Shown in pieces: positions 4,205-35,387 of a stretch of DNA of 45,469 bases. The notes under the pieces are model-generated. The model had not been told where the DNA came from, did not search any database, and saw nothing but the letters and a program-made list of their open reading frames with translations. The position numbers and the translations under genes are program-made. Every line of letters starts with the position of its first letter. Position 1 is the first letter of the stretch. Source of the DNA: a virus; the UHGV virus genome UHGV-0206691. The stretch is one strand, 5' to 3'.

Positions 4205-6472
4205 ATGTCCGATGTAATTTTATCCTACTCGTGGTCACGTCGCAACGCGCGAGCAGAGAAAAAGGATATAAACGTCAGAACCACACACACGGCAACACTG
4301 GACGACCTGAAAGAGTTAATCCAGCCGCTCGATGCCGTTCGCGACGGAATTAATCCGAAGACTGCGCCAGGGTATATCACCGCCGCGTGTGACCAAACCC
4401 ACAGCACCGTAAAAGACCCGGAAACTGGCGACTTTAAGCAAGCGCGTAAAGGCTTTTTCTATCGCTGTGATGCGTCTGTAAGCAAATCGTCGCTGGCGTA
4501 TCTGGACTTCGACAGCGCAACACCGGAAGAGTATCAGGAAGCGGTGCGCCTGGTTAAGCGCAGCCGCCAGGCGATGTGCCTCTATACCACGGCATCCCAT
4601 ACCGACGAGTCGCCGCGCTTTCGCGTCGTCATGCCACTGGCCCGTCCGGTTGAGGGTGGTGACATCATCCGTGTTCGTCATGGGTTGCTGGAACACTTCT
4701 TCAAAGGCATGGGTGCGGACCGCAGCGGGTTCACTCTGTCCCAGCCGATGTACCTGCCGCCGGTTGGCTCTCAGGTTATCTGGTCGCGCCGCAACGACCT
4801 GATTGACCCGGAAGAACTGCTGGAAGGCATTCCCGCCGTTGACGTTAGCAGCGCATCGGATTACCAGATACCGGAAGAACTGCGCACTGCGTTTACTGAT
4901 GCGTTCGAAGCCCTGGCGTTCGAGTACGGCGGTATCATGACACCACGCGGCCTTAAGATGCCAGCTACACCAGAACACGCAGAAAACTACAGCGACCCGA
5001 CGCCGCGCCCGGACGACTTCCTGCTGTGCTTCCCGCGGGAGGGGTACGAAGCGCCGAACGTAACCATGATTCACGACACCGACATTACGGCAACCGAAGG
5101 CATGTCGCCGAAAGAGGTGTGGAAGTATGCGTGTGATGCGACCGGGCTGCCGTTCAGTGAAGTCGCTGAGGCTATAGGATGGGGTGCACGTGAATCTGTT
5201 TCATGCAGCCTCGACGACCTGGAAGACGACGAGGATCCAGGGGAGGACGAGCTGCCGGAGCCGGTAAAGGCTGACTTCGTCGTTGAAGGGTACATGCCGT
5301 CGGATTGTATCTGGGACATTGTCGGGGAGTCCGGCACGTACAAATCATTCTATACGCTGGGGGTGATGTACCTGAGCGCCGCCGGATACCGGTTTGCAGG
5401 CGCTGACACACAGCGTTGCCACCACTTCTATATTGACGGTGAAGGTGGCGCAGCTACACGCACCCGTATTGACGCGCTCGCGGCTAAATACGGCGTGGAA
5501 GGTAAAGATTATGTACACGTCATCGATATGGGTGAAGTAGGCAAACTTAAAAGCCTGATTAAGTTAATGCGCGAAACTGCTGGCGAAGAGCCAATCGGCA
5601 TGGTCGCGTTTGACACCCTCAACCAGACCCTGGCACTGACTATTGATAAGTTCGACGAGAACAGCTCATCAACGGCAATCGGCATGGGTAAAGTTATCGC
5701 CATCCTGAAAGAAGTGCGTGACGCGACTAAAGCCGCGGTAGGCGTTGTCCATCATACGCCGAAAGGCGGAAAGAAAGCCCGTGGCAGCGGGGCGTTGTAT
5801 GCTGGTGTCGACGTGGAACTGACAATCGAACGTGCCACCGACCGACAGATAAACGTATACCACTCGAAATTTAAGCACGGGCCTCAGCAGAAAACTGTCG
5901 GTATGGTGCTTGAGTCGGTACAGTTCCGCGAAGCGCCGCCGCCGAAAGAATACCGCGCGGTTGAGTTCCTGGGTAACACCGAGGAATACGGCGCAATCGT
6001 AAACCTGGACCTGCCAGAACCACACAAGGCGCTTGTACTGATGCCGTGGGGCTTTGAGCCGTTCAAGACTGACGAGGAGAAAGAGCGGGAAGAAGGGCTG
6101 ACAAAGGAAGGTAAAGAAAACGTACGTAAAACCGTAGAGAATGCCGTCAACAGTTCAGAGGCCACGATACTGGCAGCGTTTGAACTGGCAGAAGGAACCT
6201 ACAACGGCAACGAAGGTATCACAGTAGCCGCAGCGAATAAGCTCGCACAGTCAGACCCCAACGCAAAGGCGTTTAACTCCAAAGAAGCCATAGAACGCGG
6301 AAAGATTAAGAAAATGGTTGAGGCCGGGTATCTTGTACCGGGAACAGATGAAAACAATCAGATAATCCAGGGCCGTTACAGACTGAACACCCGAATAACG
6401 GATAACAAGATTCCGAAGACAATATACGAACCGAATGAAATGCTGGCGGTGACAGAGGAGGATTTAGAATGA
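4205..6472 (+). CDS. bifunctional primase-helicase (AEP primase-polymerase N-terminus, RecA-like/DnaB-like ATPase C-terminus)
   Basis: ORF track; YLDFD catalytic-type motif in N-terminal half; Walker A-like GESGTYKS and Walker B-like VAFD; good RBS GAAGGAAA. Confidence 0.75.
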   Translation: MSDVILSYSWSRRNARAEKKDINVRTTHTATLDDLKELIQPLDAVRDGINPKTAPGYITAACDQTHSTVKDPETGDFKQARKGFFYRCDASVSKSSLAYLDFDSATPEEYQEAVRLVKRSRQAMCLYTTASHTDESPRFRVVMPLARPVEGGDIIRVRHGLLEHFFKGMGADRSGFTLSQPMYLPPVGSQVIWSRRNDLIDPEELLEGIPAVDVSSASDYQIPEELRTAFTDAFEALAFEYGGIMTPRGLKMPATPEHAENYSDPTPRPDDFLLCFPREGYEAPNVTMIHDTDITATEGMSPKEVWKYACDATGLPFSEVAEAIGWGARESVSCSLDDLEDDEDPGEDELPEPVKADFVVEGYMPSDCIWDIVGESGTYKSFYTLGVMYLSAAGYRFAGADTQRCHHFYIDGEGGAATRTRIDALAAKYGVEGKDYVHVIDMGEVGKLKSLIKLMRETAGEEPIGMVAFDTLNQTLALTIDKFDENSSSTAIGMGKVIAILKEVRDATKAAVGVVHHTPKGGKKARGSGALYAGVDVELTIERATDRQINVYHSKFKHGPQQKTVGMVLESVQFREAPPPKEYRAVEFLGNTEEYGAIVNLDLPEPHKALVLMPWGFEPFKTDEEKEREEGLTKEGKENVRKTVENAVNSSEATILAAFELAEGTYNGNEGITVAAANKLAQSDPNAKAFNSKEAIERGKIKKMVEAGYLVPGTDENNQIIQGRYRLNTRITDNKIPKTIYEPNEMLAVTEEDLE

Positions 6473-8360: not shown

Positions 8361-8704
8361 CTGATAAATGGTGGCTTAATTTGCGCAGCGGCGACAAAGT
8401 TTACACCGTCGGCGACCGCAGAAAGAACAGCGGTGTAGCTACTGTGCTACAAAACAGCAAAAAGTACATACACATTGCGCATGAAGCTCGCGCACTCCGC
8501 GTGAATAAATCGTCTGGCAGGCTTGAGGATTACCCGAAAACCTTAATATATAAAAGTGAAAAGCATCACATTGACGCTGTTGACGCAAGACGTAAGTTCG
8601 CAGGAATGCTGCAACAGTTAAGCGACTTACATCGCGATGATTCTTTCATTCCCACAGAAGAACAGCTACAGGCATTAAACTTGTATTTGGAGAGTTTACG
8701 ATGA
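8357..8704 (+). CDS. hypothetical protein (about 115 aa)
   Basis: ORF track 8342..8704 trimmed to ATG (MTDKWWLNL), ATGA overlap with upstream gene. Confidence 0.45.
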   Translation: MTDKWWLNLRSGDKVYTVGDRRKNSGVATVLQNSKKYIHIAHEARALRVNKSSGRLEDYPKTLIYKSEKHHIDAVDARRKFAGMLQQLSDLHRDDSFIPTEEQLQALNLYLESLR

Positions 8705-9990
8705 TTCTTAAAGAACGCGGTGGAAATAACGATGTGCACGCCTTACTGTCGCCATCTGGCGCTAAGAAGTGGCTAAGCTGCGCCGCATCACTGGCCTGTG
8801 AAAAAGATATTCCTAACACGTCCGGTAAAGCAGCCGTTACAGGGACCGCGTGCCACACTATTGCTGAGGTCCATCTCAACGCCTATATCCGCGGAACCGC
8901 GCTACCGTTAGAGCGTGAAGTCGGCGCTTACGTGCTGGATGAAGGTAAAGGCCAGATTAAGGCGCTAATCAGCCCGATGAAAGGAGCGGTACTGATTACG
9001 GCGGATATGATTGAGCAGGTGCGCAAGTACACCGACTACTGCAAAGCGATTATCGACGTGGCGACTTACGCCAAGCTCGAGATGCGCGTCAATCTTACTG
9101 AAGTATTGCATCCGGGGTACAAAGTACCTGCTGAGAGTGAAGAAGGTAAGGAGGATGGTTTAGAGACATTCGGAACAGCCGACTTAGTGGCGGTTATAGA
9201 AGGCTTTACGGGTGAAAGTAACTCCGCGATGCTCATTATCGGCGACCTTAAAACAGGACGACATCGTGTCGAAGCGAAAGAAAACAAGCAGCTTATGCTT
9301 TACGCGCTCGGTGTTTATCGCCGACTAAAAAGACGTTATAACATAACAATTGTTCGTCTGGTCATCTTCCAGCCGTATGCCGGCGGTGCGTCGGAGTGGG
9401 ATATCTCGGTTGAAGGTCTTGAACTGTTTGCTAAGTTCGCACAGAAACGCGCGCTGTTAGCACTCGATGCGTATTTCCGTGGTAAGAAGAACCTGAAAGC
9501 GTCCGACTTTAAGCCGTCAGTCGATGGTTGTCAGTGGTGTCGTTTCTCGGAGCAGTGCGCCGCGCGTACAAAGACGGTTAACGCGGTACTGGCAGAAGAA
9601 CTGGAGGACGACTTTGCGCTGGAACTGACGCCGGAGCAACTCGTAACTGAGTATGAGAAGTTGCCGCTGTTGCGCCAGCACATCGACAAGGTTGAGAAAG
9701 CTATGGCCGCCGCTTTGCATTCCGGTAAGAAAGTGCCGGGATATAAGCTGGTTGAAGGTCGTCCTGGAAATCGTGCGTGGAAAGATGCCGATGCGATTGA
9801 AGTGTCACACGGCGACATTCTCAAAAAAGAGGTATTGATGTCCCCTACGGAGGCAGCAAAAGTTCTTTCGGCGGATGAGATGGCCGCGCTTGAGCCGTTT
9901 ATTACCCGTAAGCCTGGCGCACCATGTGTCGCAACGGCAGACGACAAACGTCCTGAGTGGAATCAGGTTAGTGAAGAAGATTTAGAATAA
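8701..9990 (+). CDS. PD-(D/E)XK-type nuclease, DUF2800-like (Cas4/RecB-like fold with C-terminal Cys cluster)
   Basis: ORF track; N-terminal SPSGAKKWLSCAASLAC, central GDLKTGRH, C-terminal CQWCRFSEQC; sits next to SSB-like gene as in phage replication modules. Confidence 0.6.
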   Translation: MILKERGGNNDVHALLSPSGAKKWLSCAASLACEKDIPNTSGKAAVTGTACHTIAEVHLNAYIRGTALPLEREVGAYVLDEGKGQIKALISPMKGAVLITADMIEQVRKYTDYCKAIIDVATYAKLEMRVNLTEVLHPGYKVPAESEEGKEDGLETFGTADLVAVIEGFTGESNSAMLIIGDLKTGRHRVEAKENKQLMLYALGVYRRLKRRYNITIVRLVIFQPYAGGASEWDISVEGLELFAKFAQKRALLALDAYFRGKKNLKASDFKPSVDGCQWCRFSEQCAARTKTVNAVLAEELEDDFALELTPEQLVTEYEKLPLLRQHIDKVEKAMAAALHSGKKVPGYKLVEGRPGNRAWKDADAIEVSHGDILKKEVLMSPTEAAKVLSADEMAALEPFITRKPGAPCVATADDKRPEWNQVSEEDLE

Positions 9991-10083: not shown

Positions 10084-10722
10084 ATGGGTATCAAAGTTAA
10101 ACTGAGCAACGTGCGTATCGGATGGGTAGACGTTTATAAGAAAGCAGCGGACCGTGTAAACAGTCAGGGTCAACAAGTAGAGGGACAATACCAGCTTACC
10201 GCGTATCTGGATAAAGACGACCCGCAAATTGATAAAATTGAAGACGCTGTAACTGAGGTTATGACCGAAGCATTAGGTAGCGCTTCTGCCGCCGAAAAAT
10301 GGATGTCAAAAAACTTCGGCTTCGGGAACCATGCGGATAAATGCGCATTCCGCGACCTCGCGCAGCGCGACTCACCGATTGAAGGGCTAGAGGAAGGCTT
10401 GTATTTCATGGCTAAGAGCCGTAAGCAGCCTATGATTGCAACTTCTGAGGGTGAGGTGCAGTGTCAACGCGGCGGGCGTGTAGTTAAGGGCCTTACCGAA
10501 GCGGGTGACGATGTAGAAGGTAAGGAAGTTTATTCTGGTTGTTACGCTAATATCGTAGTTGATGTGTATTGGTACTCAACTTATAAAAACCTCGGTGTAG
10601 AACTCCTCGGTGTTCGCTTTAAGGACGACGGCGAAGCATTCGGCGGTGCCGGAGCTACCGTGGACCTTAACGACCTTGAGGATGACGAACCAGCACCGCG
10701 CCGCGAACGTCGCCGCCGCTAA
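10084..10722 (+). CDS. ssDNA-binding protein, DUF2815-like
   Basis: ORF track; size, acidic C-terminal tail (DLNDLEDDEPAP) and position after DUF2800-like nuclease. Confidence 0.55.
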   Translation: MGIKVKLSNVRIGWVDVYKKAADRVNSQGQQVEGQYQLTAYLDKDDPQIDKIEDAVTEVMTEALGSASAAEKWMSKNFGFGNHADKCAFRDLAQRDSPIEGLEEGLYFMAKSRKQPMIATSEGEVQCQRGGRVVKGLTEAGDDVEGKEVYSGCYANIVVDVYWYSTYKNLGVELLGVRFKDDGEAFGGAGATVDLNDLEDDEPAPRRERRRR

Positions 10723-10781: not shown

Positions 10782-11060
10782 ATGGCAGCGGAACTTAAGA
10801 GATACAGACGCATCACATACTGCAAATTTTGTAAGGCAGAAGGAAAAAAAGTTAGAGCAATTTGGATGACTAAATACCCTCCAGCTTACGGTGTACGAGA
10901 CTGGTATAAACACTATGCATGCGAGGAGCATAAACATTTAATAGAAGACACAGACCCAGACAGGACTTGGGCAGAAATCATAGAACGCGGTAAAAACAAG
11001 AAACAAGAACGCGACGACTATCTCACAGAAGCAGACTATCAGACGTGGTACAGACTATGA
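10782..11060 (+). CDS. hypothetical zinc-binding protein (CxxC...C..H)
   Basis: ORF track; YCKFCKAEGKK ... YACEEHKH. Confidence 0.45.
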   Translation: MAAELKRYRRITYCKFCKAEGKKVRAIWMTKYPPAYGVRDWYKHYACEEHKHLIEDTDPDRTWAEIIERGKNKKQERDDYLTEADYQTWYRL

Positions 11061-13309
11061 ACACATTGCTTTACTTAGACTTTGAAACATTCTCCGAAGC
11101 CGATTTAAAGAAAGTCGGCTCCTACGCTTACGCCGAACACCCGTCAACCGAAGTGCTAATCTGTACCTATGCTTTTGACGACGAGCCTGTGCAGGTATGG
11201 GATTGCACCGACGGCAGCGACATGCCGGGCGATTTGCACCGCGCACTGCGCCGCCTGGTTAAGCCGAACAGCCGCATCAAGATGGTGTGGCACAACGGTG
11301 GACTTTTCGACAGGCTCATCATGAAGCATTGCTGGGGCTTTGATATTCCGGTAAGCAACACCATTGATACGATGATTTGGGCGTTTCGTCACGCGCTTCC
11401 GGGTTCACTCGATGCGCTGTGTGAAGTGCTGGGCGTATCCGCGGACAACGCGAAAGATAAACGCGGCAAGGCGCTGATTCAGCGTTTTTCTAAACCTACT
11501 CCGAAGAACTACAAAATCCGCCGTTACACTGCTGAAACTCACCCGGACGAGTGGGCACTGTTTATCAAGTACGCCGTGAGCGACATCACCGCGATGCGTG
11601 AAGTCTTTCATAAGCTGCCGCGATGGGGTAACTCCGAGTTCGAAGACCGTGTACTGGAACTGGACCAGTTAATCAATGACCGTGGGTTTAAGGTTGACGT
11701 TGCACTGGCAGAAGCCGCGATTGAAGCCGTGGAGAAACACAAAGCGCAGTTACAGGAAGAGGCCCAACGCAAATACGGCGGATCGCTTACTGGGAAGGAC
11801 TTTCTGCCTATTCTGCGTGAACTGGCACCTGCGCACCGCATCCACAACGCACAGAAGTCTACGCTTAACGACCTGCTGGCGGACGATGATTTACCAGACG
11901 ACGCACGCACGATTATCGAAATGCGCCTCGGGGCCGCGTCTACAGCGTCAACGAAATATAACCCGCTACTGTTGGGCCGCTCGTCAGACGACCGCCGTCG
12001 CGGTTGCATTCAGTACGGCGGAGCCAAGCGTACATTACGATTTGCCGGTAAAGGCTTTCAGCCGCAGAACCTGGCGCGCGGGTACTATCACGACGACCCG
12101 AAGAATAAAAAGAAAAAAGTACGTTATGACTGGATGTCAGAGAAGGACTGGTGGAGAGTAACACACCCATTGTCCTACGGAATCGACCTGTTGTTTAAAG
12201 GCCGTGCGCACCGCCGTTTTGATGTAGCCAAACTGACAGCATCGACGGTTCGTAGCTGCATCATACCGGAAGCCGGGTATAAGTTTGTCGTCGCCGATTA
12301 CTCTAACGTTGAAGGCCGTGGTTTGGCGTGGCTGGCTGGAGAAGAAACCGCGCTCGATACGTTCCGCGCCGGGCTGGATATTTACTGCGTAACCGCGGGT
12401 AAGATGTTCGGAATGGACCCCGATTACATTCTCGAAAGCCGTAGTGACCTACGCCAGATTGGTAAAGCCTGTGAATTGGGCCTCGGCTATGCTGGAGGTG
12501 TTGGTGCTTTCGTTCAGTTTGCTAAAAACCTCGGCTTAAACCTTGTTGATATGGCAAAAACAATGGATGGGACTTTCCCCGACCACATCTGGGCGGCTAC
12601 TGCACGGGGCTATGAGTGGGCGCGTATACAGGAGGCAAAGCGACCGCCGCGTCCCGGTGAAAAGGACGACAGACCGTCGTATATTCTTGATAAGAAAGTG
12701 TGGCGTACCTGTGACGCTATCAAGCGCATGTGGCGCGAGTCTCACCCGGAAACCGTAGCGTTCTGGCGAGATATTGAAGACGCAGCTATGGCGGCTATCC
12801 GCAATCCGGGCAAAGAGTTCACCGCAGGACCACGCGGCGTTAAGTTTTCGCGTAACGTAGAGACAGACAACAACGGCAACAAAGTCGCTGGCTGGTGGTT
12901 GCGCATGACGTTGCCATCGGGTCGCGTTATGTCATACCCTGGCGTCGGGTTAAGCGTGTCGAAAGAGACAGACGAAGATGGAAAGGTGTCTACTAACGTA
13001 CGCATCAAGTACCAGGGGGAGAACCAGTTAACCCGTCAGTGGGGCTTCCAGTACACCTACTCCGGTAAACTGGTGGAAAACTGCACTCAGGCGCTGTGCC
13101 GTGATTTGCTGGCTAATGCCCTGCTTAACGTCGAAGCAAACGGTTACCCGATTGTACTTCATGTCCACGATGAGATTATCTGCGAGACACCAGATACCCC
13201 CGAGTACACGGTGGCTGAACTTGAGCGGTTGATGTGCGAATTACCGGAATGGGCCGAGGGGTTCCCTCTTGTAGCGGAAGGCGCGGAGATGAAGCGCTAT
13301 GCTAAGTAA
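11045..13309 (+). CDS. family-A DNA polymerase with 3'-5' exonuclease domain
   Basis: ORF track; N-terminal exo motif LYLDFETFS; palm motifs DYSNVEGRGLAWLAGE, GKACELGLGYAGGVGAF, VLHVHDEIICE. Confidence 0.9.
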   Translation: MVQTMNTLLYLDFETFSEADLKKVGSYAYAEHPSTEVLICTYAFDDEPVQVWDCTDGSDMPGDLHRALRRLVKPNSRIKMVWHNGGLFDRLIMKHCWGFDIPVSNTIDTMIWAFRHALPGSLDALCEVLGVSADNAKDKRGKALIQRFSKPTPKNYKIRRYTAETHPDEWALFIKYAVSDITAMREVFHKLPRWGNSEFEDRVLELDQLINDRGFKVDVALAEAAIEAVEKHKAQLQEEAQRKYGGSLTGKDFLPILRELAPAHRIHNAQKSTLNDLLADDDLPDDARTIIEMRLGAASTASTKYNPLLLGRSSDDRRRGCIQYGGAKRTLRFAGKGFQPQNLARGYYHDDPKNKKKKVRYDWMSEKDWWRVTHPLSYGIDLLFKGRAHRRFDVAKLTASTVRSCIIPEAGYKFVVADYSNVEGRGLAWLAGEETALDTFRAGLDIYCVTAGKMFGMDPDYILESRSDLRQIGKACELGLGYAGGVGAFVQFAKNLGLNLVDMAKTMDGTFPDHIWAATARGYEWARIQEAKRPPRPGEKDDRPSYILDKKVWRTCDAIKRMWRESHPETVAFWRDIEDAAMAAIRNPGKEFTAGPRGVKFSRNVETDNNGNKVAGWWLRMTLPSGRVMSYPGVGLSVSKETDEDGKVSTNVRIKYQGENQLTRQWGFQYTYSGKLVENCTQALCRDLLANALLNVEANGYPIVLHVHDEIICETPDTPEYTVAELERLMCELPEWAEGFPLVAEGAEMKRYAK

Positions 13310-13430
13310 ACTGATTATCGCGGTACTGGCGGGATTTGCTGCCGGTGTCTACTGTCACGAGGGCCAATACGGCATGATTGTCGCCGTACTGGGCATGTTC
13401 ATCGCAATTTATCTGTGGGTGCTGGAATGA
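13299..13430 (+). CDS. small membrane protein (43 aa)
   Basis: own reading MLSKLIIAVLAGFAAGVYCHEGQYGMIVAVLGMFIAIYLWVLE; start overlaps polymerase 3' end. Confidence 0.3.
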   Translation: MLSKLIIAVLAGFAAGVYCHEGQYGMIVAVLGMFIAIYLWVLE

Positions 13431-13512
13431 AAATATACTGGTTCTATGAAGAAGACTGCCGAATCTGTCCGCGCTGCGGGATTGAACATACGAAACGGGA
13501 GGGGTGCATATT

Positions 13513-13800
13513 ATGAGTACGCCTGAGGGCAAGATTCAGAAATACGCAAAAGACAGATTCGAGGCCCTGGGGGGCCTCGTACGAAAATTGTCGTACGAAA
13601 ATAGAGTGGGGGCCCCCGACCTGCTGGTAATCCTCCCCGGCGGCATCATCTGGTTCGTAGAGGTTAAGAAAGACGGAAGCACGAAGCCTGACCCGCATCA
13701 GTTACGGGAGCACGAGCGGATGCGTAAACGCGGCGCGAATGTTTTTGTCGTTGGTTCGTTTAAACAGGTTGACGACCTAATAGCGAACTATTATAGTTAG
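13513..13800 (+). CDS. VRR-NUC domain nuclease
   Basis: ORF track 13504..13800 trimmed to ATG after GGGAGGGG; PDLLVILPGGIIWFVEVKK PD-(D/E)XK core. Confidence 0.65.
   Translation: MSTPEGKIQKYAKDRFEALGGLVRKLSYENRVGAPDLLVILPGGIIWFVEVKKDGSTKPDPHQLREHERMRKRGANVFVVGSFKQVDDLIANYYS
13769..13797 (+). promoter_or_regulatory. sigma70-type promoter TTGACG-N17-TATAGT with AATAG-N4-CTATT inverted repeat in spacer
   Basis: ttgacgACCTAATAGCGAACTATtatagt inside the 3' end of the VRR-NUC gene, upstream of gene 13831. Confidence 0.55.
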
Positions 13801-13830
13801 TCATACGCCAACAATATAAGGAATTGAGAA

Positions 13831-14022
13831 ATGAAACACGAATATGACCGCAAACCAGCACGTGATATCGTACCGGGCGACATGATTTTCAACGTTAAGA
13901 CCCGCCAGCCGGTCGCCGTTGATACGGTGTTCGTCGAGTCGAACGGTAAACTGGTTATCGAAGATGTAACTGGTAACGTTACGGCGTTCGGGCGTAAAGA
14001 GCTGGTTTTGGTGGCGAAATGA
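13831..14022 (+). CDS. hypothetical protein (63 aa)
   Basis: ORF track; AAGGAATTGAG RBS; stop overlaps methyltransferase start. Confidence 0.45.
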   Translation: MKHEYDRKPARDIVPGDMIFNVKTRQPVAVDTVFVESNGKLVIEDVTGNVTAFGRKELVLVAK

Positions 14023-14822
14023 ACTATTACAACGAATGGGATAAAGGTGCAGCCGCGTGGCTACGTGAATTAATAAAACAGGGCCACATACCTTTTGGGG
14101 TTGTAGATGAAAGAAGCATTACCGAAGTTAAGCCAGAAGACCTTGACGGGTTCACCCAGTGTCATTTTTTCGCTGGTATCGGCGGCTGGCCTCTCGCGCT
14201 CAGACTTGCGGGAGTTTCGGAAGATACGCCTTGCTGGACGGGAAGCCCGCCTTGCCAACCGTTTAGCGCGGCGGGAAAGCAACTCGGACAGTTCGACCCG
14301 AGACACCTCGCGCCAGTCTTCCTCGACCTCATCAGCGAGTGCCGCCCTCCAGTCCTCTTTGGGGAGCAGGTTGCGCCAGCAATTGCAAAATCGTGGATGT
14401 GCGATTTACAAAATCGCCTGGAAGGAGAAGACTACGCCGTCGGGTTTGCCGTACTCCCAGCTTGTAGCGTCGGTGCCCCGCACAAACGCGACAGACTGTT
14501 CTTCGGCGCGTACAACCTGGCCGAGTCCTTGTGCGCAGAACGGGGCCGTGAACGGCTACACGGATTGGGAAAAAGTAATCAAACGCAAGGAAGCAGGACG
14601 GCAGCAGAACCTACAGGACGTTGTGATTCTGGCGGTTTCTGGTCAGATGCTGATTGGCTCGGATGCAGGGACGGAAAATTCAGGCCAGTTGAACCCGGCA
14701 CATTCCCGCTGGCTAATGGGATACCCGCCAGAGTGGGACGATTGCGCGGTTATGGCAATGCCATCGTCCCGCAAGTAGCCGCTGAATTTATAAAGGCATT
14801 CATGGGGGCGGTAAATGAGTAA
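14019..14822 (+). CDS. compact DNA (cytosine-5)-methyltransferase
   Basis: ORF track; motif I FFAGIGG, motif IV GSPPCQPFSAAGK, ENV-like LFGEQV, RxR-like HKRDRLFF, C-terminal GNAIVPQV. Confidence 0.65.
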   Translation: MNYYNEWDKGAAAWLRELIKQGHIPFGVVDERSITEVKPEDLDGFTQCHFFAGIGGWPLALRLAGVSEDTPCWTGSPPCQPFSAAGKQLGQFDPRHLAPVFLDLISECRPPVLFGEQVAPAIAKSWMCDLQNRLEGEDYAVGFAVLPACSVGAPHKRDRLFFGAYNLAESLCAERGRERLHGLGKSNQTQGSRTAAEPTGRCDSGGFWSDADWLGCRDGKFRPVEPGTFPLANGIPARVGRLRGYGNAIVPQVAAEFIKAFMGAVNE

Positions 14823-16239
14823 GTTTCGAAGGCGCGAGTACCAGAAGCTCATGACTTCGTTCATGTTGCGGCACCATCGCTGCAATATCTGGGCGAGCAT
14901 GGGCGCCGGGAAGACCGGCAGCGTACTGTGGGCATTAAACCGACTGTTCCGCAATGGGCAACTTAATGACGACGACCGCGTGTTGATCCTTGCCCCGTTG
15001 CGCGTTGCATCAGGTACATGGCCCGCAGAACAAGATAAATGGAAATTTCCATGTCTTCGTGTCGTCGATGCAACTGGTTCGGAGAAGCGCCGCATAGCGG
15101 CGCTGGAATCAGACGCTAACGTGGTGTGCACAAACTACGAAGTTATCGAGTGGCTTATTGACTACTACGGCAAAGACGACTGGCCTTTTACGGTTATCGT
15201 CGCCGACGAAAGCACGAAGCTGAAATCGTTTCGCAGCCGTTCAGGCGGTAGCAAGAGGGCCAAGGCGCTAAGCAAAGTGGCATTCGGTAGGGTTAAGCGT
15301 TTCATTAACCTGACTGGCACACCATCCCCAAACGGCCTCAAAGACTTGTGGGGCCAGAACTGGTTTATCGACGCTGGTGAGCGCCTCGGTTCTTCATACA
15401 CAGCATTCACCGACCGATGGTTTAACTCAGTACAGAAAGGCAAATCCGCGATGGCGCGTGAGTATCATGCGCGCCCGGGTGCGGATAATGAAATTCACCA
15501 GAAGATGAAGGACATTAGTCTCACGATTGACGCCGCCGAGTGGTTCGGTTGCGAAGCGCCGATTATCGTGCCGGTTGAAATCGGTCTGCCGAAGAAAGCG
15601 CGTCAGGCGTACATTGATATGGAGGAGAAGTTATTTGCGGAACTGGAGAGCGGAGAAGTCGAAGCGGCTAACGCGGCAGCGAAGACATCTAAGTGTTTGC
15701 AGATTGCTTCTGGTGCCGTGTATGTGTCCGGGCCAGATGGCGAAGCAACCAAAGACTGGGAGAAAGTGCATGACACTAAACTGGATGCGCTGGAGTCCAT
15801 TGTTGAGGAGTTACAGGGTGCACCGTTACTGGTGGCGTATCAGTTCAAGCACGAACTGGAGCGCATCCTTAAGCGATTCCCGCAGGCGCAGGCGTTTGCA
15901 AAAGGTGCTAAGGGTAATAAGCAGATGGAAGCGTGGAACCGTGGTGAGATACCTATGCTCCTGATACACCCAGCTTCTGCGGGCCACGGGCTGTCGCTAC
16001 AACATGGCGGACACCATATGGCATTTATGAGTCAGGGGTGGAACCTGGAACATTATTTGCAGGTTATCGAGCGTATAGGTCCGGTAAGGCAGATGCAATC
16101 TGGATACAAACGGTCTGTATTCATTTATCAAATAATAGCCCGAGACACTCTTGATGAAGTTGTCGCCGCTCGTACAGACGAGAAAAGGTCTGTACAAGAC
16201 GAACTACTTAATTATATGAAGAGAAGGAGTAAGAAATGA
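14815..16239 (+). CDS. SNF2-family ATP-dependent helicase
   Basis: ORF track; Walker A GAGKTG, DExx box IVADESTKLK, motif III NLTGTPSPN, helicase-C region near C-terminus. Confidence 0.8.
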   Translation: MSKFRRREYQKLMTSFMLRHHRCNIWASMGAGKTGSVLWALNRLFRNGQLNDDDRVLILAPLRVASGTWPAEQDKWKFPCLRVVDATGSEKRRIAALESDANVVCTNYEVIEWLIDYYGKDDWPFTVIVADESTKLKSFRSRSGGSKRAKALSKVAFGRVKRFINLTGTPSPNGLKDLWGQNWFIDAGERLGSSYTAFTDRWFNSVQKGKSAMAREYHARPGADNEIHQKMKDISLTIDAAEWFGCEAPIIVPVEIGLPKKARQAYIDMEEKLFAELESGEVEAANAAAKTSKCLQIASGAVYVSGPDGEATKDWEKVHDTKLDALESIVEELQGAPLLVAYQFKHELERILKRFPQAQAFAKGAKGNKQMEAWNRGEIPMLLIHPASAGHGLSLQHGGHHMAFMSQGWNLEHYLQVIERIGPVRQMQSGYKRSVFIYQIIARDTLDEVVAARTDEKRSVQDELLNYMKRRSKK

Positions 16240-16721
16240 GCAAGGTATCTTACGACCCTGAAACCGGTATTTTCACATGGGTCGAAACAAAACGTAGGGG
16301 TTTTGTTGGAAAGAACGCTGGATGTTTTTGTCCTCGGGACGGGTACATTCGTATACGAATAAACGGAAAACTAGAACTAGCACACCGGTTAGCATGGGAT
16401 ATATGCAATCCATATAACCCACTTACCCCACAGGAGCAGATATACCACATCAATCACATTCGAACCGATAACCGAATATGCAACCTGCGGAAAGTTACCA
16501 ACACTGAAAATAGCCGCAACGCATCGATAGGGGTGAACAATACTAGCGGCGCTCTTGGTGTATGGCGTGAAAAGAGAAGAAACAAATGGGTAGCAGAAAT
16601 AAAGGTAGACAGAAGAAAAATACATCTTGGCCAGTTTGATGATTTTGACGAAGCTGTTGCCGTGCGTAAAGCCGCGGAAGCTGCTTACGGATTTCATGAA
16701 AACCACGGAGAAACAACGTGA
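16236..16721 (+). CDS. HNH homing endonuclease with AP2-like DNA-binding domain
   Basis: ORF track; HRLAWD...IYHINHIRTDNRICNLRKVTNTEN HNH core; C-terminal WREKRRNKWVAEIKVDRRKIHLGQFDDFDEAVAVRKAAE AP2-like. Confidence 0.8.
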   Translation: MSKVSYDPETGIFTWVETKRRGFVGKNAGCFCPRDGYIRIRINGKLELAHRLAWDICNPYNPLTPQEQIYHINHIRTDNRICNLRKVTNTENSRNASIGVNNTSGALGVWREKRRNKWVAEIKVDRRKIHLGQFDDFDEAVAVRKAAEAAYGFHENHGETT

Positions 16722-16855
16722 ACATCATAGCCCCCATTCCAGCATTGCAAAAACGTATCAAGGAACTTGAAGAGGAGGTTCTACACCTACGGCAGCAAAG
16801 AGACGCCGCTAACGCGCAACTGGCGTTTGTACTGGAGAAGTTATCAGAAGAGTAG
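16718..16855 (+). CDS. small coiled-coil protein (45 aa)
   Basis: own reading, GTG start overlapping HNH stop: NIIAPIPALQKRIKELEEEVLHLRQQRDAANAQLAFVLEKLSEE. Confidence 0.3.
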   Translation: MNIIAPIPALQKRIKELEEEVLHLRQQRDAANAQLAFVLEKLSEE

Positions 16856-16857
16856 AG

Positions 16858-16886
16858 AAAAGGCCCCAAACGGGGCCTTAGTTTTA
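16858..16886. terminator. bidirectional hairpin terminator between replication module and tailspike gene
   Basis: aaAGGCCCCaaacGGGGCCTtagtttta. Confidence 0.6.
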
Positions 16887-18860
16887 TATAAAATACGTAC
16901 AATTTCCTATAACCCGAGAGTTATTACCCAGTGCTGCTATTGAAGAAGAAATTCCGCTAGCTGAGGCCGTGGCGCCACTTAGCATCAAATTAGCGTTTAG
17001 AGCTTCAGCTCTAATGTTCAGGGTGTAGACATTAAGCGCAAGGTTTACGTAATACCCTACGCTACCAGAACCGGTTTCACTCCCAACCGCATATGGAAGA
17101 CCGAGAATAGCAGATTGATTACCGGTACCAATAGTATTGATATGCAAATCGAACTGTACAGTAACCTTTCTTCCATCGCGACGGAAAGTTCCTTTTTGTA
17201 TCAAATACGTAGCATTACCGCCAACATTTGGCGTCCACACGCCTTCTTCAACATCACCGGAAGTCCATGCAGAAGGTGATAGCGGAGGATTGTTAACAAC
17301 CGTAAATTTAGCACCACCACTTGAGTTATATGGCGCAAAAATTGGAGTAATACGGTTGTATACGTTTCCTATCTGCTCGTCGAGGTTATTCATATCAATG
17401 AGCACCTGACCATTCTGGAATGTACTGACAGATATGTCCTCAACAACCCAATTGCGAAGTTTGACTCCAGCATCCATCATTCCAATGATGCGACCATTAT
17501 TTCCTATCTTCTCACTGTGCATGTTTATGTAACAGTTTTTTATCAAAACACCTTGCGGAATAAGATAATTTGCAGGGTTTGATGTGTCGCTAAGTACTGA
17601 AATCATCCAAGGTCTGTATGTTGTACTCACCTCAGTGTAATATCCATCTACGATTGTTCCATGGGCGTTAGGTCCAATAAGGATGCCGCCGGTAGAATGG
17701 TGCGCATTACCGCCAATAACACGGCATTTAACCGAGTTAATATACGCAAAATACCCAAGTTCCTGGTTATCGTATGCGCCCATTGAGCAGTCACGAATTG
17801 TAAATCTTGAGTTCCCCCCGTCATAGGCGCTACCATCCGTGCGCTTACTAACCAAAGCGATAAAGCTACCGGTTGCCACGGTACTAAAATACGTATGCTT
17901 TTCGCAGCATTCAATCAACCCATCCCAGTCTTCATACTGAGCGTATATGTCGTAACAGGCGCTATTTCCGAAATCAATAAACAAGCAATTACGGATGCGC
18001 GGGGTGAATACAAATGACTTAATAAATATCCCGTGCGTTGCACTTTCGCCACCAGTAAACCTAAGCCCTTCAATGGTGTATTCTCCCTGATAAAAATTAT
18101 CAGCGGTAGGTGATCCTTCTGGTGTAGGATCTCCTACCGCTAACGCTTTACCAGACCCGGTATACTTAAGCGTCGCCCCCTGATGGCCGTATATTGCAAC
18201 AGGACGGATGAAATCCAAACCTCCAGAATATAAATATGTGCCATTGGGGAAGTTAACAGTTACTGGGTTAGAATACTTAGGGCGGCTATTTACCCACGCA
18301 GCAAGAGCGGTTAAGGCCGCGGTGTCGTCAACCACACCATCACCGACTGCTCCGAAGTCTTTTACGCTAATAATGTCAGCGTTTTTTGCGTGCTGAGTTC
18401 TTGGTGTGCCCGAAACGCCCGGCTGATTTACCGAGATTAAATAGTCCCCCTTACCGTCAGAACTGCTTGCTAAATCGTTACGCAAATCCGGGTCAGTCCG
18501 CGGCTTCCAGTTAGCGTTACCAACGGGGTTAAATGATGCTGGTACAACAACCGGCAACGTACCTGCGTACGAATACCATGTTTTACTTACAGGGTCATAC
18601 ACCACTTTGTCGCGGTCGTTAGCCGTGAGAGTGCCGCCGGTAGAAAAGTCCCACGACACCGGAGAAAAACCCGCATCACGCAACACGGCAGGGAGGGTCT
18701 TCTGTGTCTGTCCCGTAACCGGATTAGCCGCATAATCAATATCCGCGCCACTGGCAACACCACCGGACTTGCCCGTGATAACCTCGGCTTCGAAAATTTG
18801 GTGTTTCTTGGCGGTTTGTAAATCCGCCAGGCTTAAAACGTCACCGCATCCGCTTGACAT
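16884..18860 (-). CDS. tailspike / depolymerase with pectate-lyase-like beta-helix
   Basis: ORF track; DFGAVGDGVVDDTAALTALAAW motif typical of right-handed beta-helix tailspikes; AAAGAGGA RBS; last gene of tail module. Confidence 0.75.
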   Translation of the reverse strand: MSSGCGDVLSLADLQTAKKHQIFEAEVITGKSGGVASGADIDYAANPVTGQTQKTLPAVLRDAGFSPVSWDFSTGGTLTANDRDKVVYDPVSKTWYSYAGTLPVVVPASFNPVGNANWKPRTDPDLRNDLASSSDGKGDYLISVNQPGVSGTPRTQHAKNADIISVKDFGAVGDGVVDDTAALTALAAWVNSRPKYSNPVTVNFPNGTYLYSGGLDFIRPVAIYGHQGATLKYTGSGKALAVGDPTPEGSPTADNFYQGEYTIEGLRFTGGESATHGIFIKSFVFTPRIRNCLFIDFGNSACYDIYAQYEDWDGLIECCEKHTYFSTVATGSFIALVSKRTDGSAYDGGNSRFTIRDCSMGAYDNQELGYFAYINSVKCRVIGGNAHHSTGGILIGPNAHGTIVDGYYTEVSTTYRPWMISVLSDTSNPANYLIPQGVLIKNCYINMHSEKIGNNGRIIGMMDAGVKLRNWVVEDISVSTFQNGQVLIDMNNLDEQIGNVYNRITPIFAPYNSSGGAKFTVVNNPPLSPSAWTSGDVEEGVWTPNVGGNATYLIQKGTFRRDGRKVTVQFDLHINTIGTGNQSAILGLPYAVGSETGSGSVGYYVNLALNVYTLNIRAEALNANLMLSGATASASGISSSIAALGNNSRVIGNCTYFI

Positions 18861-33551: not shown

Positions 33552-34601
33552 TTAAGCCCCTACACCAGTTACCAGGAAGGCAATCGGTACGTGCTTACGC
33601 TCAACAACGCGGTTCCAGTTGGAGGCGTTCGCCAGGTCCTGCCATGAAGCAGAGCGGGCGATAGTCTCAGTGCCGTTGCCAGTGATTACTGCACTGGTGA
33701 AGCTGTAGCCCAGTGGGTGCAGCAACCAGGTCTTACGGGTCCACAGGGTTTCAACACCACCGCCGTTAGCGCGAGACGCTTCACGTTCGTATTCCAGCGG
33801 GTTGGACGGGCTGCCTTCACCATAACCGATAGCGCCGTTGCCGAAGATGATGGAGATGAACTTACGGCTCGGGCCAGTACCGACTACGGTCATGCTGTCG
33901 TCAACAATCACGCGGTAGCCCTGGTAGGTGGCGAACATGGTGTTGTTGTCAGCGTCTTTGATGAAGTCGATAAGCTGCTGCTTACGTGCCTGCGCATATA
34001 CGAAGCTATGCATCGCGATAGCGCCCAGCACTTCACCACCGTTGCCCATCAGCGCATCACCCATAGTCTGGGTAGCGTCGATGAACGCGCCTGCATCGAA
34101 GCCCAGAGTAGCGGACACGTCTACAACCATGTCATTCTGCTCGTGGTAAGCGTCGGTAGCGGCTACGTTGTCGTTATACAGACCGAGGGCGGTTGCAATC
34201 AGACGGCGTTGTGCCTGGCGCTGCCAGAAGTTATCAAGACGAGACGCTACGGATTGCAGCGGGTTCTGACTGGTCAGTTCTACCGTCAGGTCAGCTTGGC
34301 CGAAACCTTCGTTCAGATACGCAACGCGCGCCATCATCTCGCCAGTCTGGACATTACGCGGGGTCGCGATGTCCTGGTATACGTCATTCGAGTAGTTAGG
34401 CTCGATAGAGGTATCAATCGCTTTCCAGAACGGAATATTAGCGACGTTGGACGGGCCGCGGGCAATCTCGGCAGCGTATGGAGTCGGGGTCAGAATACCG
34501 GACTGGAAGAACGCGGTTTTTTCTACCGGGTCCTCTGTCATGTAAGACGCCAGGACCGGGATGTTGCCAGTTACGATATCGCCGATAGTGGTAATTGCCA
34601 T
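33552..34601 (-). CDS. major capsid protein
   Basis: ORF track; 349 aa, directly downstream of scaffold gene. Confidence 0.75.
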   Translation of the reverse strand: MAITTIGDIVTGNIPVLASYMTEDPVEKTAFFQSGILTPTPYAAEIARGPSNVANIPFWKAIDTSIEPNYSNDVYQDIATPRNVQTGEMMARVAYLNEGFGQADLTVELTSQNPLQSVASRLDNFWQRQAQRRLIATALGLYNDNVAATDAYHEQNDMVVDVSATLGFDAGAFIDATQTMGDALMGNGGEVLGAIAMHSFVYAQARKQQLIDFIKDADNNTMFATYQGYRVIVDDSMTVVGTGPSRKFISIIFGNGAIGYGEGSPSNPLEYEREASRANGGGVETLWTRKTWLLHPLGYSFTSAVITGNGTETIARSASWQDLANASNWNRVVERKHVPIAFLVTGVGA

Positions 34602-34603
34602 TA

Positions 34604-35305
34604 TTATTTCCTCAGGGCTTTAAGTTGCCGTTCAAATTCGGCAGGGTTCGATTTATACAGGGCTAGACGCTCTGCTTCACTCATGTCTTTAAACGCTGGT
34701 GCGGCCCCGCCGCCTTTGCTACCGGAAGCCCCGCCGCCGGAAGCTGCATTTGCTTTAATCAAATGCGAAAATGCTTTGTGTTCACGCAGGTATTTGCGGA
34801 ACTGTTCCGGGTCAGTCGTGATTACATTGCCATCTGCGCCAACAAACTTAGTAACCACATCATCGCCTTCGAACTCAGTCTTAACGAACGGAGCCAGAAT
34901 GTCCACTGCTTCCGGGGTAATAAAGTCACCCGCGAAAGAGCCTAACACCGCTTTACGCTCGCTGCCGAGGATGCGCTCTGCCATTTTGGAGATGCGACCA
35001 TCTTTCTCGGCTAACACCGGGTCATACTGGCTACGAATCGTTTTTTCGAACTCGTCCATCTTACCAGCGGCTTTTAATGCCTCCTGGTGCGCGCGCTGCC
35101 GTTCTTCTTCTGCCTCTTTTGCTTTACGGGCGGCTTCTTTCTTCTCCGCCAGCAATACTTCCTGATTGGCCTTAAGCCCGGCAACTTCTTTCTCAATCAG
35201 CGCCTGAACTTCTTCAGCGGTGAACATTTTTGGCGCGTCACCGCCACCGGATTTATCTTCTGCCCCAGCTTCTTCCTGGAACGGATAACGTAAAAAACGA
35301 TTCAT
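34604..35305 (-). CDS. scaffolding protein
   Basis: ORF track 34604..35359 trimmed to ATG (MNRFLRYPF) after AGGGGACA; charged coiled-coil; precedes capsid gene. Confidence 0.6.
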   Translation of the reverse strand: MNRFLRYPFQEEAGAEDKSGGGDAPKMFTAEEVQALIEKEVAGLKANQEVLLAEKKEAARKAKEAEEERQRAHQEALKAAGKMDEFEKTIRSQYDPVLAEKDGRISKMAERILGSERKAVLGSFAGDFITPEAVDILAPFVKTEFEGDDVVTKFVGADGNVITTDPEQFRKYLREHKAFSHLIKANAASGGGASGSKGGGAAPAFKDMSEAERLALYKSNPAEFERQLKALRK

Positions 35306-35387
35306 AGTCAGTATGTCCCCTGGACGTTGGAATCCGGGCCACCCGGATTTACATGTCAAGAATAAATTATTCCAACATGCAAGGCAA

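Follow-up and report, generated by a model that had tools for sequence, protein, structure and literature searches.

A phage cytosine-5 methyltransferase locus that probably encodes two chains in overlapping reading frames

How does a DNA methyltransferase find its target when its own chain contains almost no target-recognition region? This question is raised by a 267-amino acid (aa) open reading frame (ORF) at 14019..14822, on the + strand of a 45,469-nucleotide (nt) stretch of DNA from UHGV virus genome UHGV-0206691 (the whole stretch is hereafter called the window), within the part under study at 13,513-16,855. A sequence-only reading of this DNA had described the gene as a compact orphan cytosine-5 methyltransferase (C5-MTase) that might protect the phage from host restriction. 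In this study, we found that the same DNA carries a second ORF, nested in the +1 frame, and we consider it likely that the locus is an orphan two-polypeptide DNA (cytosine-5) methyltransferase, with one stretch of DNA being read in two frames.

In the scheme that we propose, the first frame (frame A) would encode an α chain comprising the S-adenosylmethionine (SAM)-binding and catalytic large domain with all of the catalytic motifs, motifs II-III being transposed to a position before motif I. A junk-like linker in α would merely carry the reading frame on to a conserved C-terminal segment and motif X. The +1 frame (frame B), started at its own internal ATG, would encode a β chain that begins with a disordered, dispensable N-terminal part (a shadow cast by the α core) and goes on to a helix, a hairpin, one or more WPxP modules, and a motif-IX-like C-terminus. 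On the model of M.EcoHK31I, α and β would assemble into an active enzyme in which β acts as the small target-recognition domain (TRD). This enzyme would act on a specific short sequence of the phage DNA at the time of replication, and the resulting methylation would protect against particular host restriction enzymes only. Within this scheme, the translation of β, the α-β assembly, the 5-methylcytosine (5mC) activity, the target site, and the protective role are parts that we infer from comparisons of sequences and predicted structures.

The catalytic chain in frame A

The C5-MTase identity given to the 267-aa product in the sequence-only reading was borne out by domain, profile, and fold comparisons. 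Against Pfam PF00145, frame A scored 60.8 bits (cut-off 22; E=2e-16), with coverage of aa 74-165 only, and against TIGR00675 it scored 37.4 bits, which is under the cut-off of 100.65. Profile alignment by hhalign to M.HhaI gave a probability of 98.3-98.4%. An AlphaFold2 model, built like the other structure prediction in this study from alignments of database homologues, had a predicted template modelling score (pTM) of 0.69 and was confident for aa 1-78, aa 98-170, and the helix that follows motif X; aa 179-209 were disordered (predicted local distance difference test score, pLDDT, <50), and the conserved segment at aa 210-244 was of low confidence. With this model, Foldseek retrieved M.HaeIII, M.HhaI, DNMT1, and Dnmt2 at probability 1.0 (top matches 1dct, 2z6a, and 1fjx), at TM scores of only 0.3-0.5. 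A carboxymethyl-transferase reading of frame A is not favored, as 8yf3 is one of many generic C5-MTase matches found by Foldseek. A natural phage CmoX does exist (PMC12783734), and no carboxy-S-adenosylmethionine (cxSAM) synthase was found among the ten large replication-module and other ORFs and the ORFs of the region under study that were scanned against PHROGs.

All of the motifs that had been read from the sequence, i.e., I, IV, VI-like, VIII-like, and X, are present in the ORF. Their conservation was assessed in an alignment of 84 diverse homologues, down to ~55% identity, in which 70 columns are invariant, including C79, E116, R157, R159, and N247; the catalytic residues, far from being degenerate, are thus kept throughout. 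The SAM-binding motif I (FFAGIGG, aa 50-56; 14166..14186, +) has invariant F50, F51, A52, G53, and G55, and motif IV (PPCQ, aa 77-80; 14247..14258, +), which contains the catalytic Cys79, has invariant P78, C79, and Q80. The ENV-like motif VI (GEQV, aa 115-118; 14361..14372, +) aligns to FMENV of M.HhaI. Across the whole methylase family this motif is EQV, with Q117 invariant, the canonical form being ENV. Motif VIII (HKRDR, 14481..14495, +; the RxR element being RDR, aa 157-159) aligns to QKRER of M.HhaI. It is followed by a linker at aa 165-205 (14511..14633, +) that is unconstrained, with equal variability at all three codon positions, varies in length among relatives, is always open, and is predicted to be disordered. 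Motif X (GYGNAIVPQ, 14748..14774, +; GNAIVP at aa 246-251) precedes a C-terminal helix at aa 251-266 with a pLDDT of ~90. We conclude, on sequence grounds, that frame A is a C5-MTase with intact catalytic motifs and would be expected to form 5mC.

Frame A is like M.HhaI and M.HaeIII (PF00145) in motifs I, IV, VI, VIII, and X and in its large-domain fold, but unlike them it has no in-frame small domain, has motifs II-III before motif I, and has EQV instead of ENV. The alignment of frame A to M.HhaI stops at M.HhaI residue 169-175, at motif VIII; therefore, frame A is without the small domain (TRD and motif IX) in its own chain.

The order of motifs in frame A is II-III-I-IV-VI-VIII-linker-X. 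What had been described as an N-terminal extension of ~45 aa turned out not to be one, as it holds a motif II-III-like unit (YYNEWD, a helix, and VVDERSI; 14025..14120, +) ahead of motif I, recognized by phmmer, hhalign, and the AlphaFold2 model. In both phmmer and hhalign, aa 3-13 (YYNEWDKGAAA) align to M.HhaI 37-47 (YSNEWDKYAQE); aa 35-66 align to M.HhaI 2-33, and the hhalign alignment has a 35-residue gap exactly over M.HhaI motifs II-III. When aa 1-40 were shifted in silico behind aa 66, the alignment became collinear with M.HhaI 9-169, the score rose from 102 to 122, and the E-value fell from 1e-14 to 1e-17. The model has strands at aa 2-5, 27-30, 47-50, and 72-75 and helices at aa 9-20 and 56-63, all at pLDDT >90. 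The order of these elements fits β2-αB-β3-β1-αA-β4, and the canonical collinear order I-II-III-IV is not found. As judged from the alignments and the model, the ‘extension’ is the motif II-III SAM-binding unit moved before motif I. The unusually short distance between motifs I and IV that had been noted (~21-27 residues) was confirmed, and it is explained by the II-III unit sitting before motif I, i.e., it is a rearrangement without loss of SAM-binding elements.

A non-canonical linear motif order is also seen in the circularly permuted C5-MTases, e.g., M.BssHII, M.Alw26I, and M2.Eco31I. However, in these and others the permutation is a true circular one that places motifs IX-X in front of I-VIII, and in a 2018 survey all of the natural permuted C5-MTases in REBASE have IX-X before I-VIII (PMC5944983). 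In contrast, frame A has the II-III segment alone swapped before motif I, which is a non-circular rearrangement that is unlisted in that survey.

The nested +1 frame and the constraint on it

The missing part of the enzyme may lie in frame B, which encodes a putative β subunit of 223 aa (14107..14778, +) wholly inside 14019-14822. Frame B matches PHROG 1008 (E=2.9e-47) and PHROG 31772 (E=1e-16), both of which are labelled DNA methyltransferase. The earlier remark that the methylase has almost no target-recognition region therefore holds for frame A but not for the locus as a whole, in which this conserved nested ORF had been overlooked.

The constraint on frame B was examined in 92 loci that were picked by frame-A similarity alone, with A-core identities of 55-96% (80 of them from IMG/VR). 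When the A and B pieces were searched separately by tblastn, every locus so searched had the same layout: the A core, then B in the +1 frame, then the A C-terminus in the original frame again. Open +1 stretches of 206-474 codons are present in 92/92 loci, whereas the +2 frame of the same loci is open for just 8-137 codons. The +1 stretch begins within ~+112 nt of the A start in 91/92 loci (at +184 in the remaining one) and in most loci closes no more than a few tens of nt from the A stop; in a few it continues into the next gene. When the codons of A in the window were shuffled synonymously, keeping both the protein and the codon usage, 0/5000 trials gave a +1 run of 223 codons or more. At other loci the same procedure gave p values from 0.0006 to 0.15.

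Positional entropy, computed like the start-signal statistics below from 86 unique loci, separates regions of single and dual constraint. Over frame-A codons 1-120, third positions vary (1.2-1.65 bits) and first and second positions do not, which indicates selection on A only. Third-position entropy drops from ~1.5 to 0.6-1.15 within codons 121-144 and 217-240 (~1.0 at codons 121-144), consistent with a dual constraint where B is conserved. Over codons 169-204, A is unconstrained, with an amino-acid entropy of 2.8-2.9, and it is the third position of B that tends to be most variable, by small differences. At codons 241-264, around motif X, variation is again mostly at frame-A third positions. 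The result is a mosaic, in which the A core is kept and A aa 165-205 are free, and in which B aa 1-70 are free and B aa 74-216 are kept, the first 72 codons of B having shadow conservation only. The linker of A is probably an unconstrained ‘shadow’ of the second, +1 gene, kept only to carry the frame to the motif X segment.

It might be argued that frame A is a self-sufficient, compact single-chain orphan C5-MTase and that the +1 ORF is a by-product of base composition and of the constraints on A. All of the catalytic motifs do lie on frame A alone, B matches nothing in curated domain libraries, and synonymous shuffling of GC-rich relatives yields long +1 ORFs fairly frequently (up to 15%). 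Self-sufficiency without a TRD is nevertheless improbable in view of a conserved +1 gene with a WPxP module and a motif-IX-like end. The +1 frame is open in all 92 loci against the short +2 runs, B is conserved exactly where A is free, synonymous sites of A are suppressed where B is conserved, and the translation signals of B are embedded by biased synonymous codons. In addition, A has neither the small domain nor the TRD that C5-MTases require for base flipping and recognition. We regard this as the least probable of the explanations that we weighed.

The constraint on A and that on B fall on shared codons, so that both frames appear to be translated there, and a single frameshifted polypeptide cannot explain such a pattern. 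This bears on a second alternative, namely that programmed frameshifting produces one canonical chain that runs from A (motifs I-VIII) by a +1 shift into B (TRD and IX) and by a -1 shift back into A (X). The conserved blocks are indeed in canonical order along the DNA, with I-VIII in A, TRD-like and IX-like parts in B, and X in A, and motif X comes only ~8 codons after motif IX; this order probably reflects the evolutionary origin of the locus. However, B is open, with a Shine-Dalgarno sequence (SD) and an ATG, from ~70 codons before its conserved part, which a frameshift would not need; both frames are constrained over A codons 121-160 and 217-240; A is uninterrupted across the variable region at every locus; and the M.EcoHK31I precedent yields two separate chains. 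Frameshifting is thus very unlikely.

The two-chain reading calls for an internal start, and a candidate was found at 14097..14109 (+), where GGGG, a 6-nt spacer, and an ATG (14107), with an in-frame TAG before it, lie inside the codons for G-V-V-D-E of A. Among the 86 unique loci, 78 have an ATG within the B-frame ORF by +130, mostly at +88 (in GAT-GAA for Asp-Glu of A) or +106 (in GAT-GTN for Asp-Val). GGAG, GAGG, or AGGA occurs 5-16 nt upstream of this ATG in 58/86 loci and in 0/86 for the control frame. The SD of B is typically made by AGG/CGG-AGC codons for Arg-Ser of A, and the codon for Arg32 of A is AGG in 33% of loci compared with 10% gene-wide. Judging from these codons, the SD and ATG of frame B are usually built out of synonymous codon choices in A, and the statistics support an independent translation of B from the internal start.

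Frame B itself begins with ~70 residues that are unconserved and predicted to be disordered. Its conserved core (14332..14472, +) overlaps frame-A motifs VI-VIII and consists of a predicted long helix (SASAALQSSLGSRLRQQLQNRG; aa 74-94) and a β-hairpin (IYKIAWKEKTTPSGLPYSQLVAS; aa 102-122) at pLDDT 84-93, in which L81, L85, L89, G97, W105, T110, P111, G113, A121, and S122 are invariant or nearly so. It is followed by a single WPSP module of the WPTP type (14518..14529, +), with an invariant W138; relatives have one to several copies. The C-terminal part GQLNPAHSRWLMGYPPEWD (14683..14739, +) is motif-IX-like and is encoded by the same DNA as the conserved frame-A segment RPVEPGTFPLANGIPARVG; frame B ends in motif-IX-like LNPAHSRWLMGYPPEW. 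This stretch is the most conserved part of B (amino-acid entropy 0.76), and the entropy of frame-A third positions over it is 0.62. In hhalign, the sole match of the B profile to M.HhaI is a weak one (E=0.053) to residues 272-290, RKLHPRECARVMGYPDSYK, which is motif IX.

The ORF lengths of A and B both track the number of WPTP modules in B, and in long homologues the A frame has GLADT/GLADA low-complexity repeats, which are the frame shadow of WPTP in B. Between close relatives, A cores are 90-95% identical compared with 52-66% for B aa 96-223, with insertions and deletions of modules. At the sequence level, this combination of a conserved A core and a divergent B fits a diversifying target recognition. 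One candidate for extreme repetition, P0265 (4633 aa, with ‘32 repeats’ of B 96-139), was rejected as spurious, as its repeats are low-complexity, Ser/Thr/Ala-rich, and without WxTP.

Frame B is widespread, with 9318 representative clusters matched at E<=1e-3. In tblastn searches, its C-terminal half matches ‘methyltransferase’ genes in unrelated Klebsiella, Xanthomonas, Burkholderia, Rhodobacter, and Edwardsiella phages and also P2-like Salmonella phages. In some GenBank relatives it carries the name ‘Mte8-like protein’ or is a second annotated ‘DNA methyltransferase’, and some records, e.g., that of Klebsiella phage VLCpiM12a, call B without A. Mte8 has a single passing mention in the literature, without a function. 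In Escherichia phage Bas76 (L005 1198-1866), the C-terminus of frame B is degenerate just before the LMGYP core (…YQADFARQLMGYPQEWDDC) and frame A is intact; the β subunit may be relaxed or altered in this lineage.

The two proposed chains in the light of known enzymes

The closest likeness is to M.EcoHK31I (E. coli HK31; Lee, Kam and Shaw 1995). According to the passages of PMC2836561 that describe this enzyme, it consists of an α and a β chain, both of which are needed, and β, with motif IX, is encoded wholly within the gene for α (motifs I-VIII and X) in another frame. In vitro, the enzyme does not need the first ~42 residues of its β chain, and starts at internal Met codons are possible (PMC2836561). 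As far as these passages go, the resemblance extends to a two-polypeptide C5-MTase with the second ORF nested in the α gene, to the presence of motifs I-VIII and X on α (frame A), and to the dispensable β N-terminus, which matches the unconserved, disordered first ~70 residues of B. In contrast to M.EcoHK31I as described there, which is part of a restriction-modification (RM) system (YGGCCR), the window gene is an orphan in a lytic phage, its TRD-like conserved modules are on β, and the variable region of its α is junk; the rearranged motif order of α may be a further difference. The window gene is probably a nested arrangement of the M.EcoHK31I kind, not unprecedented, and possibly a variant of it by its motif order and by a TRD on β. 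By this analogy, frame B most likely supplies the DNA-recognition part that is absent from α.

The subunits of M.AquI are encoded by consecutive ORFs that overlap slightly and are not nested, and motif X is on the second subunit. M.AquI is a C5-MTase that is naturally divided between a catalytic part and a complementing one with motif IX and the TRD (PMC5944983), and it resembles the window locus in that the catalytic chain and the motif IX/TRD chain are separate.

Rearrangements in other phages also involve frame B. Frame B of Edwardsiella phage eiAU-183 and of Klebsiella-phage-like contigs runs without a stop into a downstream gene for a Dam-type N6-adenine methylase, which gives an in-frame β-Dam fusion ORF of 449-497 aa (L004 943-2364; L017 1568-2914; L019 1568-2926; protein P0251). 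In P0256, frame B is similarly fused to a DUF2800/PD-(D/E)XK domain. The β-Dam read-through fusions argue that frame B is translated. In a close relative (L092 1501-2769; P0147), the methylase gene contains an insertion of ~515 bp with an HNH endonuclease ORF (HHVNEDW...CVFCHQYWH). Frame B reaches its motif IX and its stop intact directly before the insertion, what is left of the original B C-terminus is found downstream, and frame A is open through the entire insertion to give a 422-aa product.

Such fusions could also be read in another way, since the joining of B to either a Dam adenine methylase or DUF2800/PD-(D/E)XK within one ORF suggests a modular DNA-binding role. Frame B could be a real protein that does not complete the methylase, e.g., one with a regulatory or anti-defence function or a DNA-binding adaptor that other enzymes use as well, with α working or failing alone, and the weakness of the motif IX similarity would agree with this. 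However, B is nested in A-type genes at every locus examined, the strictest dual constraint links the B C-terminus with the conserved C-terminal segment of A, and M.EcoHK31I provides a precedent for completion. We consider such a separate role of B unlikely.

Several observations weigh against the two-subunit explanation. The motif IX assignment of B depends on a 19-residue match at the E-value given above, and sequence and profile searches of frame B against Pfam, NCBIfam, and the PDB gave no match. The AlphaFold2 model of frame B is poor (pLDDT 61), and a fold search of the PDB with it returned nothing below E=0.6. The SD in the window itself, GGGG, is weak, and the +1 frame of GC-rich relatives is open by chance fairly often, with p up to 0.15 at a single locus. 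The likeness to M.EcoHK31I is one of described architecture, and in the passages of PMC2836561 that describe it the TRD of that enzyme is on α, so the division of labor may differ. Finally, the Kagunavirus isolates of the BASEL collection are reported to be highly sensitive to the RM systems tested (PMC11990801).

Genomic setting, orphan status, and meaning of the locus

A megablast search identified the window as an E. coli siphophage of Kagunavirus-like (Guernseyvirinae) type, and region 13400-17000 matched 487 phage records, mostly at 80-92% identity. The genes under study, with the methylase among them, close a rightward replication module, and a leftward tailspike gene comes after them. 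Upstream in this module are a helicase-primase (4205-6472), an exonuclease (8701-9990), a Gp2.5-like single-stranded DNA-binding (SSB)/annealing protein (10084-10722), and a family A DNA polymerase (11045-13309). The replication and recombination setting that the sequence-only reading had proposed was therefore upheld, as were its SNF2 and HNH-AP2 assignments, by Pfam and PHROG. The SNF2/VRR-NUC pairing, which it regarded as a phage recombination arrangement, was followed as far as the identity of the two domains.

Of the VRR-NUC nuclease, which it had listed in a sub-cluster beginning at position 13769, the nuclease identity stands, by PHROGs and not by Pfam; the start does not, as that position is inside the 3' end of an ORF at 13504..13800 (+) for a VRR-NUC-type nuclease of 98 aa. 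This ORF matches PHROG 93 (‘endonuclease’, E=7.7e-34) and PHROG 5702 (‘Holliday junction resolvase’, E=1.1e-19), and it scored 17.6 bits (E=0.004) against Pfam VRR_NUC, under the 23.8-bit cut-off. Relatives are annotated from an internal ATG, at ~94-95 aa, as VRR-NUC or Holliday junction resolvase. It is followed by a conserved 63-aa ORF (13831..14022, +) that matches PHROG 4879 over its full length (E=1.3e-46), is ‘hypothetical’ in relatives, and overlaps the methylase start via ATGA. On the other side, an SNF2-family helicase of 474 aa (14815..16239, +; Pfam SNF2-rel_dom E=1e-12; PHROG 62 ‘DNA helicase’ E=2e-166) overlaps the methylase stop by 8 nt. Next come an HNH_3 and AP2 homing-type endonuclease (16236..16721, +; Pfam HNH_3 E=4e-10; PHROG 99 E=2e-62), the AP2 domain of which is under its Pfam cut-off (E=2e-4), and a conserved, coiled-coil-like 45-aa ORF (16718..16855, +; PHROG 5915 E=2.5e-26) that is ‘hypothetical’ in relatives.

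The HNH-AP2 gene is a precise insertion of 479 bp (16240-16718 of the window) between the SNF2 stop and the 45-aa ORF. Its flanks are contiguous in one close relative (L001, blastn), most relatives cover only ~80% of the region, and the insertion is common to ORH_001 and Hrm2 only. Judging from these alignments, the gene behaves like a free-standing homing endonuclease. Elsewhere in the window, an unusually long 482-aa ORF (33717-35165, +) lies antisense to the leftward structural genes at 33552-34601 and 34604-35359; it had no match in a PHROG search and is probably spurious.

No restriction enzyme adjoins the methylase, its neighbors in Pfam and PHROG searches being the VRR-NUC, 63-aa, SNF2, and HNH-AP2 genes. 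As had been proposed, the methylase is therefore an orphan. Its suggested role in self-protection against host restriction is plausible, and since Kagunavirus isolates are reported as highly RM-sensitive, any protection must be narrow and site-specific.

The two-frame reading has consequences for annotation and for laboratory work. Most records of the family call one of the two ORFs, A or B, each as a ‘DNA methyltransferase’, so that pipelines misdescribe a two-gene enzyme. In expression or deletion work, a change that is silent in one frame will affect the protein of the other, and α alone may be inactive. The locus is a clean and deeply conserved case of overprinting in a double-stranded DNA phage, with measurable signatures of dual coding, and can serve as a test case for the detection of overlapping genes. 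With its II-III-I order, it also provides a naturally occurring topology for a fold that has been permuted artificially by protein engineers.

For the family as a whole, we put forward a broader view that falls somewhat short of an even chance. The nested α/β arrangement, instead of being peculiar to M.EcoHK31I, would represent a very large and ancient family of phage and prophage C5-MTases (thousands of 50%-identity clusters), with a recognition subunit overprinted in the +1 frame, an SD and ATG made from synonymous codons of a conserved α motif, a number of WPTP modules (and perhaps a specificity) that varies between near-identical phages, and a II-III-I-IV order that is unrecorded among natural C5-MTases. 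The variation in WPTP count among close relatives suggests a route by which these phages could switch specificity.

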